Sequence record: OL615011
Length of the DNA stretch: 64,000 nucleotides
Source: Shigella phage vB_SboS_Gloob
Reading direction: 5' to 3' (one strand)
A program made the translations under genes and the position numbers. Positions 56,329 through 61,896 of the stretch are shown in pieces (the first letter of the stretch is position 1; every line of letters starts with the position of its first letter). The notes under the pieces are model-generated. The model saw only the letters and a list, made by a program, of their open reading frames with translations. It had not been told where the DNA came from and did not search any database.

Positions 56329-56634
56329 GTGCAAGAACAATCCAAGTTTGGGGAAACCCCAGACAAGCGTTCCGGTGATAGCGATATGGATGGCGTGATT
56401 ATCCATGTCAACAACTTTATTCGCCAGCAGGAGACTCCGACTCCTATCGGCGCAGCCAAGGCTCTTCATGACGTACTGGTGGAGATCGGTCAGCGCTCTG
56501 AAGCGGATGAAATCTTCTATAACTTCGACGACCAGTATAAAGTGAAGTTTGAAGAGAATGGCCGCCCACAGGTTGCTGTATTCTGGGCACCATGGATGGG
56601 CGGCGTGAGCTGGCGTATTGAGGATATTGCATAA
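56329..56634 (+). CDS. hypothetical protein (101 aa, GTG start)
   Basis: AGGAGG SD 7 nt upstream of GTG. Confidence 0.4.
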   Translation: MQEQSKFGETPDKRSGDSDMDGVIIHVNNFIRQQETPTPIGAAKALHDVLVEIGQRSEADEIFYNFDDQYKVKFEENGRPQVAVFWAPWMGGVSWRIEDIA

Positions 56635-57551
56635 TGGCTAAAATAATTGTAGTGAAAGGAACCAGTGCTACGGGCAAGGGTACGAGAGTGGTTCAGTTCA
56701 TCGAATGGCTCCGTACGAAGCTGGAGCCTACCGAACTAACCTACACTATCGGCGACAAGACGCGTCCGTTTGGGCTGAAGTTTGAAGAGATGAAGTTAAT
56801 CTTCGTCGGCCAGTACACTGTGTCCAACAAATCTGGCCTGGCCTCCTGGACTTCCATGGATGCTATCCACGCGGCCACAGGCTCCGGCGATATCGCTCGT
56901 GACCTGGTCAAAGGCTGGCTGGCCCAGGGTTACACCCTGGTGTGTGAGGGCGAACCTCTGATGCTGTCGGATAAATGGCGTCCTGAATGGATGTTCAAGA
57001 ACTATCCGATTGAATCACTGTCACTGCTGTACTTTGCATACCCTGACCGCTATCAGTACGATGCCCGCATCCGTGGTCGCTCTGGTAAAGAAGCAGGGGA
57101 CTCCGGCTGGTCGCGCAACGAATCTTACTCCAAGGAGTTTGAGAAGTCGAAGGCCGAAATGCTGGCGCTGGGCTTTACTGTGGCTGTTGATGATTTCAGC
57201 GGACAGGATATCCTGTATAAAGCACCAGAGGCCAACACCCAGGAGTTCACGACCAAACAGCAGTCCGAGTTGGCGGTGCTCCCATACGACGCCCCGCTGT
57301 GGGTTGTGGGTATTGCGATTTGTCATCAGATACGCTCTGAACTGCGCGATGTTGACATGCATACCAAAGACTTCTACGCCTACTGCGAAACCAATCCGAT
57401 GACCCGTGAGGTCGGTGGCCGGGATCCTTTGGCGCACAGAGTCCCTGAGAAGCCGCAGAAGGCATCCAAAACTAAAACCAAGGCGAGCGCCCAGCCAGAA
57501 GCACCGAAGGCAGCGTCGCGCTCTCTCCTTGACCTGATGAAGAAGGGGTGA
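56634..57551 (+). CDS. P-loop kinase, candidate 5-hydroxymethyluracil DNA kinase (305 aa)
   Basis: Walker A VVKGTSATGKGT; association with polymerase and PLP-enzyme genes. Confidence 0.45.
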   Translation: MAKIIVVKGTSATGKGTRVVQFIEWLRTKLEPTELTYTIGDKTRPFGLKFEEMKLIFVGQYTVSNKSGLASWTSMDAIHAATGSGDIARDLVKGWLAQGYTLVCEGEPLMLSDKWRPEWMFKNYPIESLSLLYFAYPDRYQYDARIRGRSGKEAGDSGWSRNESYSKEFEKSKAEMLALGFTVAVDDFSGQDILYKAPEANTQEFTTKQQSELAVLPYDAPLWVVGIAICHQIRSELRDVDMHTKDFYAYCETNPMTREVGGRDPLAHRVPEKPQKASKTKTKASAQPEAPKAASRSLLDLMKKG

Positions 57552-57553
57552 TC

Positions 57554-57751
57554 ATGAAACGGTTGTCTAATTATCTGTTATTCGTCGGTCTGGTTATGGC
57601 AGCCGTTTCAATGTGCGCTGCCCTAGCCTATCATTTCACCCCTCTGGACTTAACAACCTCAGAGAAGTTGAACGTGACTGTGATGTACTGTATTGGCGCG
57701 GTGATGTCTATCGGCGCTGCTGGTTACAAAATATTCAAGGAACCAAAATGA
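57554..57751 (+). CDS. small membrane protein (about 65 aa, two predicted TM segments)
   Basis: ORF track; ATG at 57554. Confidence 0.4.
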   Translation: MKRLSNYLLFVGLVMAAVSMCAALAYHFTPLDLTTSEKLNVTVMYCIGAVMSIGAAGYKIFKEPK

Positions 57752-58104
57752 AAATTCAAATCCCTCGCGATGCTGTGGCTGTCGCAATTGACTACACCGG
57801 AAACGCCAAGCACATTACTGCTGTGCGCCTGATTCCTGAAAAGAACTGCGTGATCCCTCAGTTCCAGCTGAATGCCAACCCGTCGTCTAAAGACTTCGGT
57901 CAGTGGCTGCAAGCGGCTCCGTTCCGTACCCAGACGAATGCCCAGATGTTCATCTCGGGTAAGACTCACACTGCAGCCCGTCTGTGGTTCGTGACCGCTG
58001 ACCGTCGCTTTATCGATATGTGGGAACGCCCGATGGGGTTCGTGAAACCAGAAGACATTCAGCTGGCTCCTGAAGAGGAAGCGAAAGATGACGCATCTAT
58101 CTAA
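57748..58104 (+). CDS. hypothetical protein (118 aa)
   Basis: AAGGAA SD; ATG 57748 inside longer track ORF. Confidence 0.45.
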   Translation: MKIQIPRDAVAVAIDYTGNAKHITAVRLIPEKNCVIPQFQLNANPSSKDFGQWLQAAPFRTQTNAQMFISGKTHTAARLWFVTADRRFIDMWERPMGFVKPEDIQLAPEEEAKDDASI

Positions 58105-59314
58105 AATGCCGACGGGATATACACCCCCGGCTGAATGGAAGTACCCGATTGACCTGGCTGTTGACTATCGCAAGCCGGAGAATCGCATGTACCTGCTCAA
58201 GGCTTGGGTGGAGGCGCTGTCCTACACCGAAGAGCACAACCAGCAGATGCGTCTGATGGATTATGCGATCGAAGTCACAGAAGGCATCACGCAGATTGAG
58301 AAGATCGAGCGCAAAATCTGGATGTCGTTCCTTTGGGGCTGCTGTTACAACGCCATCGGACCGTGGACAATCTACAGTGAGTTCCCTGTACCTCCTCAGT
58401 CCAAAGAAGAGATGCAGCGCTTCTCTGATTGGTACAACCTGAACTTTGAACGCATGCGCTTCGATACCGATTGCCGTTACCGCAAGTCCAAGATGATCCC
58501 GTGTGTTCAGTCCTACATTGATTGGCTGGCTGGGCGCTCCCAGATGGATGCTTTCCGCCCGATGTTAGAATTGGATATTCCTGTACACCAATTCACGAAT
58601 TTGTGGGATACGGCGATGTCCTGGAAATACTTCGGCCGCCTGAGCGCCTGGAACTTCCTGGAAGCCCTGAACATGGTGTTTGGCAACATGTGGGAGATTG
58701 ACGTCCCTGGCTTCATGCTGCGTGACCGTGATGGTAGTGAATCCAACCGCAACGGTGCGGCGTTCTTGTCCAACCGTGACGACTGGGTGACTAAGCACGG
58801 GAAGAAAAAGATCAACGGCTGTCCTATCACGGATGAAGAGTGTGACATCCTTGAGGCCGACCTTGAGCAGGCGTTCCAGGATTGTGTGGCCGAGTTCGGG
58901 CATCTGACGTTCATCAATCGCCTGAACTTTGAGACCTCCGGTGCATGCTGGCTGAAGAAGTTCTTCCGTGAAAAGAACACCCGTTACATTGGTTGGGATG
59001 CCGAGCGTACCTGGGATGAGATCGACTACATGGAACGCATCTGGCCGGAGTACTCCTGCGCAGCGCTCTGGGAAGCCCGTTCACTCTGGCTACCAGATAC
59101 CCTGTTGTGCGAAAAGGCTCCTCCAGGGCACGTTCCAGGCGTCCAGAAGTGGAAGATGCCTGTGTTCTTTGAGACTGGCGTTCCTCTACATATCTGGCAT
59201 CTGCAAAAGGGTACGCGCTGGGAGCCTGGCCAGGTGTATCGAGAATTGGGTAAACCGAAGATTGATAAACCGAAGTCCAACAGCGTCAACCTCATGGCAC
59301 TCTTGAAACGCTGA
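58088..59314 (+). CDS. hypothetical enzyme-sized protein (408 aa), candidate DNA base-modification transferase
   Basis: Size and neighbourhood only; no motif recognised. Confidence 0.3.
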   Translation: MTHLSKMPTGYTPPAEWKYPIDLAVDYRKPENRMYLLKAWVEALSYTEEHNQQMRLMDYAIEVTEGITQIEKIERKIWMSFLWGCCYNAIGPWTIYSEFPVPPQSKEEMQRFSDWYNLNFERMRFDTDCRYRKSKMIPCVQSYIDWLAGRSQMDAFRPMLELDIPVHQFTNLWDTAMSWKYFGRLSAWNFLEALNMVFGNMWEIDVPGFMLRDRDGSESNRNGAAFLSNRDDWVTKHGKKKINGCPITDEECDILEADLEQAFQDCVAEFGHLTFINRLNFETSGACWLKKFFREKNTRYIGWDAERTWDEIDYMERIWPEYSCAALWEARSLWLPDTLLCEKAPPGHVPGVQKWKMPVFFETGVPLHIWHLQKGTRWEPGQVYRELGKPKIDKPKSNSVNLMALLKR

Positions 59315-59350
59315 TATAAATATCCTCGCCTATAAAGTGAGGATATTATC

Positions 59351-59518
59351 ATGTTACAAGATCTGTTGGTCTACGCACTTCCGGGTGTGGTTGTTGGATT
59401 CATCGCAGGTGCTCTGGTCTTCCGTAAACACGCGCAAGACGGTGAAGTGATTGTTCAAAAGGGTAAAGACATCCTGGAACAAATCGAAGCCAAACTGGAA
59501 GAGCTGAAGAAAAAGTAA
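59351..59518 (+). CDS. small membrane protein (55 aa)
   Basis: GTGAGGA SD; TM segment LVYALPGVVVGFIAGALVF; too short for the ORF track. Confidence 0.4.
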   Translation: MLQDLLVYALPGVVVGFIAGALVFRKHAQDGEVIVQKGKDILEQIEAKLEELKKK

Positions 59519-59545
59519 TCTGACTGCGATTGCGTTCTTCAATAA

Positions 59546-59585
59546 AGGGGAATGGGTTATTATTAGCCCGTTCCCCTTTCTTTTT
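59546..59585 (+). terminator. terminator GGGGAATGGG-TTATTATTA-GCCCGTTCCCC plus T-run; -10-like TATTAT in loop
   Basis: Preceded by GTTCTTCAATAAA; same architecture at 62342. Confidence 0.6.
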
Positions 59586-59813: not shown

Positions 59814-60196
59814 CACAGTCCGAATACAAACAGTACCTGTACGATCTGTTCATGAAAGAAACGGATGGTACACTCCACCCTAAGAAAGCCACTATCGTCG
59901 TGCTGTATTCACAAGGTGCCCTGTCATTCTCCTATCTTTTCAAAGAATTGGATCTGATGGGCATTGAATATAAAAAGCACATTACGCCAGAACGCACTCT
60001 GAAGCGCGCAACCGCTCACTGCGTCCACTCGGTGGCGACTATCATGTTCCGCCATCATATTACATTCGATGAAGCGCTGGACCCACAGTATCACGAAGAA
60101 CGCTGGGGACTGCTGTTGCATAACGGTGCCAAGCCTGAGCACAAAGATCAACTCCTTGGGATGACCAAGGCGCAACTCGTGGATGGTGTGTTATGA
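59810..60196 (+). CDS. hypothetical protein (128 aa)
   Basis: ORF track. Confidence 0.45.
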   Translation: MTQSEYKQYLYDLFMKETDGTLHPKKATIVVLYSQGALSFSYLFKELDLMGIEYKKHITPERTLKRATAHCVHSVATIMFRHHITFDEALDPQYHEERWGLLLHNGAKPEHKDQLLGMTKAQLVDGVL

Positions 60197-61308
60197 TCTA
60201 TCTCCTGTTTGGTGTGCCATTGATATTGGCCATCCTGTTTGTGGTCTACCACCGCAAGACCCATGAGCCGAAAGAGACTCTGATTGCGACGGCGATTGTG
60301 GTGGTGCTGTCCTGTCTGATTCAGGTCGGGGCTTATGCTGCGTTCTCCCTCGGCAGTTCAGGGGACGTTGAGATCCTGAACGGTTACGTCACTGGCAAAG
60401 AGCGCAATAAGGTGAGCTGCGAGCACTCGTATCAGTGCAACTGCTATTACACCACATCATGCTCCGGCTCCGGTAGCAGCAAGTCCTGCACCCGTACCCG
60501 TCATTGTAGTACCTGCTATGAGCATTCGTATGACGTGGACTGGGATGTGTTGACGACTGTTGGTAATCTGACGATTGACCGCATTGACCGCCGTGGTCTT
60601 GGCCAGCCGCCGCGCTGGGCGCAGGTTCAGATTGGTGAGCCAGCCGCCCGTGAGCACTCCTACATGAACTATGTGCTGGGCAACAAGGACTCTCTGTTCT
60701 CCCGCTCAGACCAGCAGTTTGCTGAGCGCTTCAAAGACAAGATTCCCAAGTACCCTGAGGTCTATGACTACTATCGTGTCACTCGTGTCCTGAACGTGTC
60801 CGGCCTGACTTTGCCAACCACATACTGGAACGACTACCTGAATGATGTTCTGAAGAAGCTGGGCGCAGCCAAGCAGGTGAACATCGTCTGGGTTGTCACA
60901 TCCGGCCAGCCAGTTGAATATTTCCAGGGCTTGGTCTATGCATGGGATGGCGGTAAAAAGAACGACGTTATCGTCGTGACCGACATCAGCAAAGATCTGA
61001 AGATCAATTGGGGTAAGAGCACTTCGTTCGCTGATGGTATGCACAACCGTGAACTTCACTCCCGCAACGGTATGGACCTGACTGGGCATGATATGGGTAT
61101 CGGCGTCATGACAGACGTTGTTGCCAACATCACCAAAGGCTACAACCGCGTTGAGATGAAGGAAATGGAGTACCTGAAGTGGCGGGAACTCAAGACCTGG
61201 GAAGTTGTGGTTGTTGTTCTGCTGGGCTGCTTGCCGTTCACCGCAATTTTCATATTGCAGCGAATGGAGTACAATGGTGGCCGTCGTCGTTATCCGTTTA
61301 AATTTTAA
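60193..61308 (+). CDS. Cys-rich integral membrane protein (371 aa)
   Basis: N- and C-terminal TM segments; 12 Cys within about 40 residues (CEHSYQCNCYYTTSCSGSGSSKSCTRTRHCSTCYEH). Confidence 0.5.
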   Translation: MIYLLFGVPLILAILFVVYHRKTHEPKETLIATAIVVVLSCLIQVGAYAAFSLGSSGDVEILNGYVTGKERNKVSCEHSYQCNCYYTTSCSGSGSSKSCTRTRHCSTCYEHSYDVDWDVLTTVGNLTIDRIDRRGLGQPPRWAQVQIGEPAAREHSYMNYVLGNKDSLFSRSDQQFAERFKDKIPKYPEVYDYYRVTRVLNVSGLTLPTTYWNDYLNDVLKKLGAAKQVNIVWVVTSGQPVEYFQGLVYAWDGGKKNDVIVVTDISKDLKINWGKSTSFADGMHNRELHSRNGMDLTGHDMGIGVMTDVVANITKGYNRVEMKEMEYLKWRELKTWEVVVVVLLGCLPFTAIFILQRMEYNGGRRRYPFKF

Positions 61309-61326
61309 TCAAAAGAGGAAGTAAGA

Positions 61327-61896
61327 ATGTCTCAATCTAAGGGTATTTCAACAGGATGGATCGTTGGTTTGGTTGTTCTGGCACTGGTGGTGGTCGGCTT
61401 CGGCACCGTGATCAGCTACTTCAACGACTTCAACCGCACTGAGCAGCAGGTCAAGAAGTTCAACAAAGACTCTGAGAACTATCTGAGCAACTACACGCTC
61501 AAGGTTCAGGAGACGGCGCAGATTCCTGACATGTACAAAGACGGCCTGAAGGAAGTGATCAAAGGCACGTTCGAAGGTCGTTATGGTGCCGATGGTTCCA
61601 AGGCGGTGATGCAGTGGATCCAGGAACAGAACATCCAGTTTGATTCAAGCCTGTACAAAGAGATTCAGGTGGTGATCAGTTCTGGCCGTGACGAGTTCCG
61701 TATCAGCCAGACCAAGAAGCTGGATATTTGCGCAATGTACGAAACCAAGCTGGCTCAGTTCCCTGGTTCGTTGATTGCTGGCATGTTCGGCTACCCGCGC
61801 ATCGATCTTGACAAGACCTGTCAGGTGGTGAGCGATACCCGTACCCAGGCTGCGTTTGACGCTGGGGTTCAGAAACCGATCAACTTCAAAGGCTGA
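61327..61896 (+). CDS. LemA-family protein (189 aa)
   Basis: N-terminal TM; FPGSLIAGMFGYPRID matches the LemA C-terminal signature as I remember it. Confidence 0.55.
   Translation: MSQSKGISTGWIVGLVVLALVVVGFGTVISYFNDFNRTEQQVKKFNKDSENYLSNYTLKVQETAQIPDMYKDGLKEVIKGTFEGRYGADGSKAVMQWIQEQNIQFDSSLYKEIQVVISSGRDEFRISQTKKLDICAMYETKLAQFPGSLIAGMFGYPRIDLDKTCQVVSDTRTQAAFDAGVQKPINFKG

Follow-up and report, generated by a model that had tools for sequence, protein, structure and literature searches.

Two adjacent genes of Shigella phage vB_SboS_Gloob (sequence record OL615011) are considered here, within a stretch of 64,000 nucleotides (nt) that is called the window; coordinates count from its first letter. 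The downstream gene encodes a protein of 189 amino acids (aa), the small protein, which is, as judged by profile comparisons, a divergent member of the LemA superfamily, although it is not a PF04011 protein by the Pfam criterion. The upstream gene encodes a 371-aa membrane protein, the big protein, and this partner of the LemA-like protein is, on profile and fold evidence, a TPM-domain protein. The explanation that best accounts for the whole, and in which we place moderate confidence, is that the two genes are a phage-adapted LemA-TPM operon, the products of which would face the periplasm and act together on the membrane. The identity of both domains and the predicted membrane topology, taken by themselves, are highly probable. 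The features on which the argument depends are the following.

60193-61308, + strand: gene of the big protein, a 371-aa TPM-type membrane protein of PHROG 2087 (ATG start, from the listing of open reading frames, ORFs)
60193-60354, + strand: two predicted N-terminal transmembrane (TM) helices of the big protein, aa 1-19 and about 26-54, with the short basic loop YHRKTHEPKE between them (hydropathy, aa 1-19 and 29-47; model helices, aa 2-20 and 26-54; loop charge)
60355-60792, + strand: conserved Cys-rich beta domain of the big protein, aa 55-200, predicted periplasmic (model strands, conservation)
60418-60525, + strand: Cys/His cluster C76, H78, C82, C84, C90, C99, C105, C108 and H111 of the big protein (pairing statistics, model register)
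60805-61182, + strand: TPM domain of the big protein, approximately aa 205-330, with the motif W251-x-G-G-K-K-N-D258
61201-61305, + strand: predicted C-terminal TM helix of the big protein, aa 337-355, and short basic tail GGRRRYPFKF, the tail predicted cytoplasmic (hydropathy, charge)
61309-61326, + strand: intergenic spacer of 18 nt, with an AGAGGA ribosome-binding site (61314-61319) 7 nt 5′ of the ATG of the small gene (sequence)
61327-61896, + strand: gene of the small protein, a 189-aa LemA-like protein of PHROG 1383 (ATG start, ORF listing)
61360-61416, + strand: predicted N-terminal signal-anchor TM helix of the small protein, aa 12-30, with the N-terminus cytoplasmic (hydropathy, charge bias)
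61729-61821, + strand: span from C135 to C165 of the small protein, probable intramolecular disulfide (Cys co-occurrence)
61759-61797, + strand: LemA signature motif FPGSLIAGMFGYP of the small protein, aa 145-157 (alignment with FPGVIFAKMFGF of Thermotoga LemA, 2ETD, and FPGSLIAGMTGF of Neobacillus LemA)

Concerning the small protein, the sequence-only reading, an earlier inspection of the letters of the window, had proposed a LemA-like protein on account of an N-terminal TM helix and a C-terminal signature. Both traits are present: the only hydrophobic segment lies at the N-terminus (aa 12-30), and the signature FPGSLIAGMFGYPRID occupies aa 145-160. The LemA identity itself stands as a remote homology detected by profile-profile comparison, and it fails by plain Pfam, the search that the sequence-only reading had put forward as a refuting test, since the match scored 13.8 bits against a gathering threshold of 26.2 bits for LemA PF04011. 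This match (E 0.054) was confined to aa 125-158, around the C-terminal motif. Weak Pfam LemA matches were obtained with 9 of 47 family members (best E 0.0016), LemA being the most recurrent family, with 4 matches for the runner-up. A precomputed LemA domain was assigned to none of 98 small-protein homologs.

Profile methods gave a clearer outcome. When the profile of 47 homologs was run against the sequences of the PDB, the top match was the LemA structure 2ETD (E 0.0027), collinear over profile positions 31-159. With hhalign, the family profile aligned to 25 Thermotoga-like LemA proteins with 96.5% probability, and to 80 diverse bacterial LemA proteins with 97.6% probability (E 3.4e-12, 161 columns). 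As the TM helix inflates hhalign scores, the runs were repeated with the helix removed, and the probabilities were then 57% with the narrow profiles and 86.6% with the broad ones (E 4.4e-6, 127 columns), compared to 0.1-5% in controls with reversed sequences or across families. Conversely, when a hidden Markov model of bacterial LemA was run against the window, its sole match was the small-protein ORF (E 4.8e-7). The phage sequence FPGSLIAGMFGY contains the LemA pattern F-P-x6-A-x3-G-F/Y in alignment with the Thermotoga and Neobacillus sequences. The layout is also that of LemA: in a protein of about 190 aa, an N-terminal TM helix precedes a purely helical domain that takes up about 150 aa, and the genuine LemA proteins to which it was compared measure about 165-215 aa. 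The AlphaFold model of the small protein is all-helical, with a helix over aa 9-63 and a predicted local distance difference test score (pLDDT) of 86.6. A HMMER profile search of 1.84 billion representatives returned 1,425 clusters, none of them cellular LemA; the family thus comprises at least 1,425 clusters at 50% identity, and it can be considered discrete because the search does not spill over into cellular LemA.

The big protein had been described by the sequence-only reading as carrying TM segments at both ends and a dense cysteine cluster, and this description was borne out, with hydrophobic segments at aa 1-19, 29-47 and 337-355 and seven Cys within aa 76-108. Its AlphaFold model has a mean pLDDT of 89.9. 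In the Cys-rich domain, the model displays long beta strands at aa 57-74, 80-91, 98-108, 114-121 and 124-128, and the invariant or near-invariant residues include G64, K69, C76, H78, C82, H111, D114, D116, W117, R141 and N159. The majority of the invariant residues of the big protein fall in this domain, for which no known family was found in Pfam and PDB sequence searches with the big protein or its family.

The evidence for the TPM domain comes from the family rather than from the single sequence. The big protein of the window gave no match to Pfam TPM PF04536 up to E 1, and the family profile gave none against PDB sequences. Nevertheless, TPM_phosphatase was the most recurrent weak Pfam match in the big family (12 of 50 members, best E 1.8e-4). 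The hhalign comparison was weak against single TPM proteins (2.5% and 35.8% probability), and it improved only with a profile built from more than 70 bacterial TPM neighbours: against the TPM proteins adjoining bacterial LemA, the probability was 72% over aa 213-327, including the loop W-x-G-G-K-K-N-D, with controls at or below 3%. The fold is the one expected for TPM, a central four-stranded beta sheet with flanking amphipathic helices. The characteristic loop, W-G-x-G-x-K-x-N-G followed by a beta strand, is found as W251-D-G-G-K-K-N-D-V-I-V-V, which aligns with W-G-I-G-x-K-x-x-N-N-G-V-L-L-L; W251, G253, K255, K256, N257 and D258 are invariant, or nearly so, across the big family.

The two genes are strictly linked. 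Their association was studied in 80 viral contigs reached through the small protein, representing 32 lineages when grouped at 70% identity, the most distant being about 37% identical. Every one of the 80 loci has the big gene upstream of the small one, in the same orientation; the median gap is about 15 nt, and in 78 cases it stays below 400 nt. No third conserved neighbour gene was common to more than four lineages of these loci. Homologs of the two proteins were found in 497 and 486 phage records, with near-identical counts per host genus. The hosts include Enterobacteria, Vibrio, Aeromonas, Acinetobacter, Xanthomonas and rhizobia. The complete carrier genomes listed are all of at least about 100 kb and belong to virulent myoviruses or jumbo phages, nearly all with diderm hosts. 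There is also a natural in-frame fusion of complete big and small proteins, of 553 aa (JGI 3300014198, contig Ga0181608_113487, 1012-2673). Known from a single metagenomic contig, it is topologically consistent with the predicted orientation and lends this weak support. The same contig carries a Pfam Gad2 (PF26128) gene about 2 kb downstream of the fusion. The correlation of pairwise identities was considered as evidence of co-evolution and discarded: Pearson r was 0.90 overall and 0.36 below 60% identity, the relationship being dominated by close relatives.

The same pairing occurs in bacteria. In Thermotoga and Neobacillus, a PF04536 TPM gene is directly next downstream of the LemA gene. Among 80 diverse bacterial LemA loci, a TPM ORF was located at 3 kb or less in 75 cases, and immediately downstream in 54. 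It seems reasonable therefore to interpret the phage pair as a derivative of this cellular two-gene unit. The bacterial unit (PF04011 then PF04536; in Thermotoga, TM0961, structure 2ETD) resembles the phage one in comprising a protein of about 190 aa and a TPM membrane protein. The phage LemA-like protein shares with bacterial LemA the N-terminal TM helix, the helical domain, the motif FP-x6-A-x3-G-[FY] and the charge polarity around the TM helix, and the phage locus shares with the bacterial operon a TM helix after the TPM domain and the tight juxtaposition of both genes. There are also differences. On the phage side, the TPM protein is enlarged by two additional N-terminal TM helices and by the Cys-rich beta domain (about 150 aa), and it ends in a short basic tail, while bacterial TPM proteins have a Gly-rich tail. 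In the phage LemA-like protein, the conserved motif GRYGADGSKAVMQWIQEQN takes the place of the central LemA segment.

The likeness to other known systems is more distant. TLP18.3/Psb32/LMTP1, DUF5130 (the M. smegmatis CIII2CIV2 subunit, 6ADQ chain J) and YdjH, all of them TPM factors, are only 9-16% identical to the phage protein, and none of them contains the Cys-rich beta domain, so that only function can be borrowed from them, by analogy. The likeness to T4 Imm/Sp and T/RI is one of topology. These are phage inner-membrane proteins that act from the periplasmic side, and the RI/T pair joins a small helical protein through disulfides to a larger partner, globular and periplasmic. No sequence or fold similarity to them was found in the searches, and they lack the LemA plus TPM cellular ancestry of the phage pair.

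The topology of both proteins was deduced from charge distribution and cysteine patterns. In the small family, the mean net charge is +1.33 in the N-terminal flank of the TM helix and −0.42 in the C-terminal flank; in genuine LemA the corresponding values are +1.76 and −1.36, with the same polarity as in the phage proteins. About 8 of 161 small-protein homologs carry a lipoprotein-type signal (lipobox) instead of the TM helix. In the big family, the mean net charge is +0.77 in the loop between the first and second TM helices, −1.39 just after the second one, at the start of the ectodomain, −1.14 just before the third one, at the end of the ectodomain, and +1.79 in the C-terminal tail. From the contrast between the positive loop and the negative flank that follows the second helix, the loop is predicted to be cytoplasmic by the positive-inside rule.

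Cysteines tend to be conserved or lost in pairs. Of the small-protein homologs, 95 contain both C135 and C165, 64 contain neither and only 2 contain one of them; beyond the TM helix, 157 of 161 sequences have either no Cys or two. An intramolecular C135-C165 disulfide is thus probable, as judged from co-occurrence. In the big family, 139 sequences have C84 together with C105, 51 have neither and 1 has a single member of the pair; for C90 and C99, the corresponding counts are 174, 7 and 10. These two pairs share one antiparallel register in the model (84 + 105 = 90 + 99 = 189), across strands 80-91 and 98-108. The likely arrangement, with disulfides deduced from sequence statistics and model geometry, is a disulfide-stapled beta hairpin plus one unpaired Cys. 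Ectodomain Cys counts in the big family are mostly odd (7 or 5), which would leave free C76, near the conserved H78 and H111. On a speculative note, C76 with H78 and H111 could act as a metal ligand or form an intermolecular bond. The charge bias, the all-or-none Cys pairs and the lipoprotein variants together lead to the prediction that both globular domains are periplasmic.

From these features, a mode of action can be proposed. The big protein would insert through its two N-terminal helices and expose the Cys-rich and TPM domains to the periplasm, its third helix recrossing the membrane to end in the short basic cytoplasmic tail. The small protein would be anchored by its single N-terminal helix, with the LemA-like helical bundle in the periplasm. 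Both would work together, probably as a physical complex, and dock on a conserved host inner-membrane complex or on the membrane itself, thereby stabilising or retuning membrane function over the long infection of large virulent phages. The strict linkage, the identities of both domains and the membrane topology are computational results. Complex formation, target and physiological effect are matters that we infer. A universal target is suggested by the range of hosts and by the number of residues kept invariant. The sequence-only reading had proposed envelope remodelling, superinfection exclusion or interference with a host membrane system; the evidence narrows these possible roles to something done at the inner membrane, on its periplasmic face.

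The analogy is with characterised TPM proteins, which are repair factors of photosystem II, a subunit of the mycobacterial respiratory supercomplex and the conserved PspA partner YdjH; TPM proteins have been proposed to be chaperone-like assembly factors of membrane complexes (PMC11237479; bioRxiv 10.1101/2025.01.14.632903; bioRxiv 10.1101/2024.10.28.620569). Minor support comes from Flavobacterium columnare, where lemA and a TPM gene are both induced on disturbed membrane proteostasis (PMC13236525). A membrane-maintenance function is accordingly offered as a tentative proposal, to which we would give clearly less than even chances. About as tentative is the specific version in which large virulent phages would equip the inner membrane of the host with a dedicated, periplasm-facing LemA-TPM complex, and so control a universal function of that membrane. 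Under that version, the membrane could be kept energised and intact or, equally, damage made by the phage could be hidden from envelope-sensing defences, and the Cys-rich domain, with its presumably unpaired Cys76 and with His78 and His111, would bind the target or a metal.

Several observations weigh against the explanation as a phage-adapted operon acting on the membrane. Neither phage protein scores at the Pfam gathering level. The gene order is inverted relative to the bacterial operon, with the TPM gene first, and the best-conserved parts of the phage proteins (the Cys-rich beta domain and GRYGADGSKAVMQWIQEQN) have no counterpart in cellular LemA or TPM. The cellular LemA-TPM pair has no established function, so the functional step is made by analogy alone. 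PspA is not a general companion of the pair, as it accompanies it in 28 records, all of Acinetobacter phages. Signals that would date the expression of the LemA/TPM block were sought in the sequence without success: sigma-70-like sites are no commoner than expected by chance, and the T4-type late-promoter motif TATAAATA (59315-59322), located 5′ of a 55-aa single-TM ORF (59351-59518), is followed by a very strong terminator-like hairpin (59544-59579, 16-bp stem plus T run) 3′ of that ORF, the next ORF beginning about 20 nt after the hairpin with no space for a promoter between them. Finally, among 82 ICP1 genomes with a flanking segment at least 99% identical, the cassette is present in only 8, all of them 2017 isolates from the Democratic Republic of the Congo (DRC). 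As it is missing from the other 74 near-identical genomes, the cassette is shown to be mobile and dispensable in ICP1, and an accessory gene of the conflict type accounts for this pattern no less well than a housekeeping role in the membrane.

This last point introduces the main rival explanation, which keeps the same domains and topology and assigns them another purpose. The pair would be an accessory cassette used in phage-phage or phage-host conflict, either excluding superinfecting phages at the periplasm or inner membrane, in the manner of T4 Imm and Sp, or masking the membrane perturbation caused by the phage from host systems that watch over the envelope. Besides the ICP1 distribution, the nearest DNA relative of the ICP1 cassette is in an Aeromonas phage (vB_AdhM_TS9, 71%), which is the pattern of a mobile accessory gene; the genomic neighbourhood differs by lineage with no conserved neighbour; and both proteins are predicted at the periplasmic face of the inner membrane, the site of phage DNA entry. 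On the other hand, exclusion and anti-defence genes are usually narrow in distribution and fast-evolving, whereas the pair keeps many invariant residues across diverse hosts; it descends, moreover, from a cellular operon found across bacteria, and no meaningful PADLOC match was obtained. A conflict role can be regarded as rather unlikely, if worth serious consideration. Lysis control, a phosphatase activity and a virion role are less likely than either a membrane or a conflict role. In lysis control, the small protein would resemble an i-spanin or antiholin and the big one would be a holin-like or regulatory partner, as with T4 T and RI. Its N-terminal TM helix, helical domain in the periplasm and Cys located there give the small protein a superficial likeness to such type II membrane proteins, and some small-protein homologs are indeed lipoproteins; yet no lipobox ORF occurs within or adjoining 61327-61896, and the partner gene encodes a TPM protein (371 aa) that has three TM helices. 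This role is considered improbable. As a periplasmic enzyme, the TPM protein would be a phosphatase or nucleotidase that releases phosphate or modifies an envelope phospho-compound, with the LemA-like protein as its membrane adaptor, and would support the large DNA synthesis of big phages. The Pfam name TPM_phosphatase and the weak phosphatase or ATPase activities reported for some members, e.g., TLP18.3 and BA41 (cited in PMC11237479), speak for it, as does the presence of the pair in large phages, often near nucleotide-metabolism genes. Nevertheless, recent analyses doubt the phosphatase activity of TPM proteins (bioRxiv 10.1101/2024.10.28.620569; bioRxiv 10.1101/2025.01.14.632903), and the Cys-rich beta domain is better conserved than the TPM domain, so this appears to be the least probable of the alternatives.

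The virion role has to be considered because of annotation. Under it, the LemA-like protein would be a component of the particle, brought to the host membrane at infection, where it could for instance aid DNA passage. The 'virion structural' label was traced to mass spectrometry of purified particles of phage Acibel004, in which the small-protein homolog ORF020 gave 10 unique peptides and 54.6% coverage (PMC4128745, Table S6A), a coverage nearer to that of the structural than of the non-structural proteins of the same table. However, the preparation also held PspA/IM30, RNA ligase and NAPRTase, and the obligate partner, ORF019, was not detected in the particles (PMC4128745). ORF020 sits between ribonucleotide reductase and thymidylate synthase, outside the structural module. 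In phage LIMEstone1, the small protein of which is about 96% identical to that of the window, the 39-protein virion proteome includes no ORF above 174 (PMC3296691), and the pair comes after the DNA polymerase at ORF178-182. The co-purified non-structural proteins, the position of the gene, the LIMEstone1 proteome and the absence of the cassette from 74 of 82 ICP1 genomes make a structural role unlikely; in addition, a TM- or lipid-anchored protein is improbable in a tailed virion. The virion role is thus judged about as improbable as lysis control, and the RefSeq label 'virion structural protein' is doubtful.

Returning to the locus itself, both ORFs were found where the sequence-only reading had placed them, with 371 and 189 aa on the + strand. 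The big protein matched PHROG 2087 (function unknown) with E 8e-164, and the small one matched PHROG 1383 (labelled 'virion structural protein', as it is also in RefSeq) with E 5e-87. Over the region, identity amounts to 97.5% with Shigella phage ChubbyThor and to 95% with Ag3, both of the genus Agtrevirus of Ackermannviridae. By sequence identity, the source of the window is an Ag3-like Ackermannviridae phage, and both genes are real and conserved. The start ATG of the big gene overlaps the stop codon of the upstream ORF (ATGA, 60193-60196). Library scans (Pfam, NCBIfam, PADLOC and PHROG) gave no significant match beyond the two PHROGs; Pfam matches were sub-threshold, and NCBIfam and PADLOC gave marginal matches at most. 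In PADLOC, the big protein had no match and the small one had a marginal match to LeoBC (E 0.0015, aa 9-112, TM helix included).

The flanking ORFs that were scanned all belong to PHROGs of unknown function, except a kinase-like protein (PHROG 4409). In relatives with annotated neighbours, replication or nucleotide-metabolism genes surround the pair. Upstream of the local block, the genes at 56634-57551 and 58088-59314 have RPN242 counterparts annotated as 'P-loop nucleotide kinase 2' and 'alpha-glutamyl/putrescinyl thymine pyrophosphorylase clade 2'; in PHROGs, the same two genes correspond to guanylate kinase (4409) and to a family of unknown function (3271). We take their products to be thymidine-hypermodification enzymes, as in ViI-like phages. 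Two tiny predicted membrane proteins are also encoded in the gene block, at 57548-57751 (67 aa) and 59351-59518 (55 aa), belonging to PHROGs 4514 and 3879 of unknown function; their Ag3 counterparts are annotated as membrane proteins. In Ag3 (NC_013693.1, 149624-150310), a SegD-like homing endonuclease gene lies directly 5′ of the kinase-like gene, and positions 203-497 of PHROG 15209 ('endonuclease') match the kinase-like protein of the window, which suggests that some relatives may have fused or adjacent endonuclease-kinase ORFs.

Some other observations were made on relatives of the pair. Acinetobacter myoviruses encode their own PspA/IM30, e.g., Acibel004 ORF066; no PspA/IM30 homolog was found in the 64-kb window. 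In the 2017 DRC ICP1 genome MW794146.1 (17.6-21.7 kb), the pair belongs to a block of some ten genes, none of which bears a legacy GP number. Contig CAVCLW010000025.1, labelled Escherichia coli, carries a LemA gene, the protein being 56% identical to Thermotoga LemA. The DNA of that gene had no match in 5,426 complete E. coli genomes, a comparison that is insensitive as a search for a host LemA; the contig is probably mis-binned.

Concerning previous knowledge, automated annotation already labels a few homologs as 'LemA', and one preprint names LemA among phage genes. A literature search, which left most subscription-journal papers outside its reach, found nothing on the TPM identity of the partner, on the strict LemA-TPM pairing in phages or on the topology, and the two full-text articles that named both LemA and TPM dealt with one Flavobacterium mutant. 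The operon linkage of LemA and TPM, although evident in genomes, has thus received hardly any study.

Among bacterial membrane-protein families without an agreed function, LemA and TPM rank with the most widespread, and a large family of big virulent phages appears to carry a streamlined, strictly paired derivative of the LemA-TPM operon. Propagated annotation is corrected in two respects: the virion label of the small protein is poorly supported, and its 'hypothetical' partner is, by profile and fold, a TPM protein. The periplasmic face of the inner membrane is indicated as a target of large phages. Simple experimental systems are at hand: ICP1 is available both in isolates that carry the cassette and in others that lack it, and Ag3, CBA120 and Acibel004 can be grown in culture. 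Should the pair give only a modest fitness benefit, the outcome would be a useful re-annotation rather than a discovery. If the two proteins do form a dedicated complex, they would provide the first genetically tractable entry to the function of cellular LemA-TPM, with the presence or absence of the cassette in ICP1 as a natural comparison.

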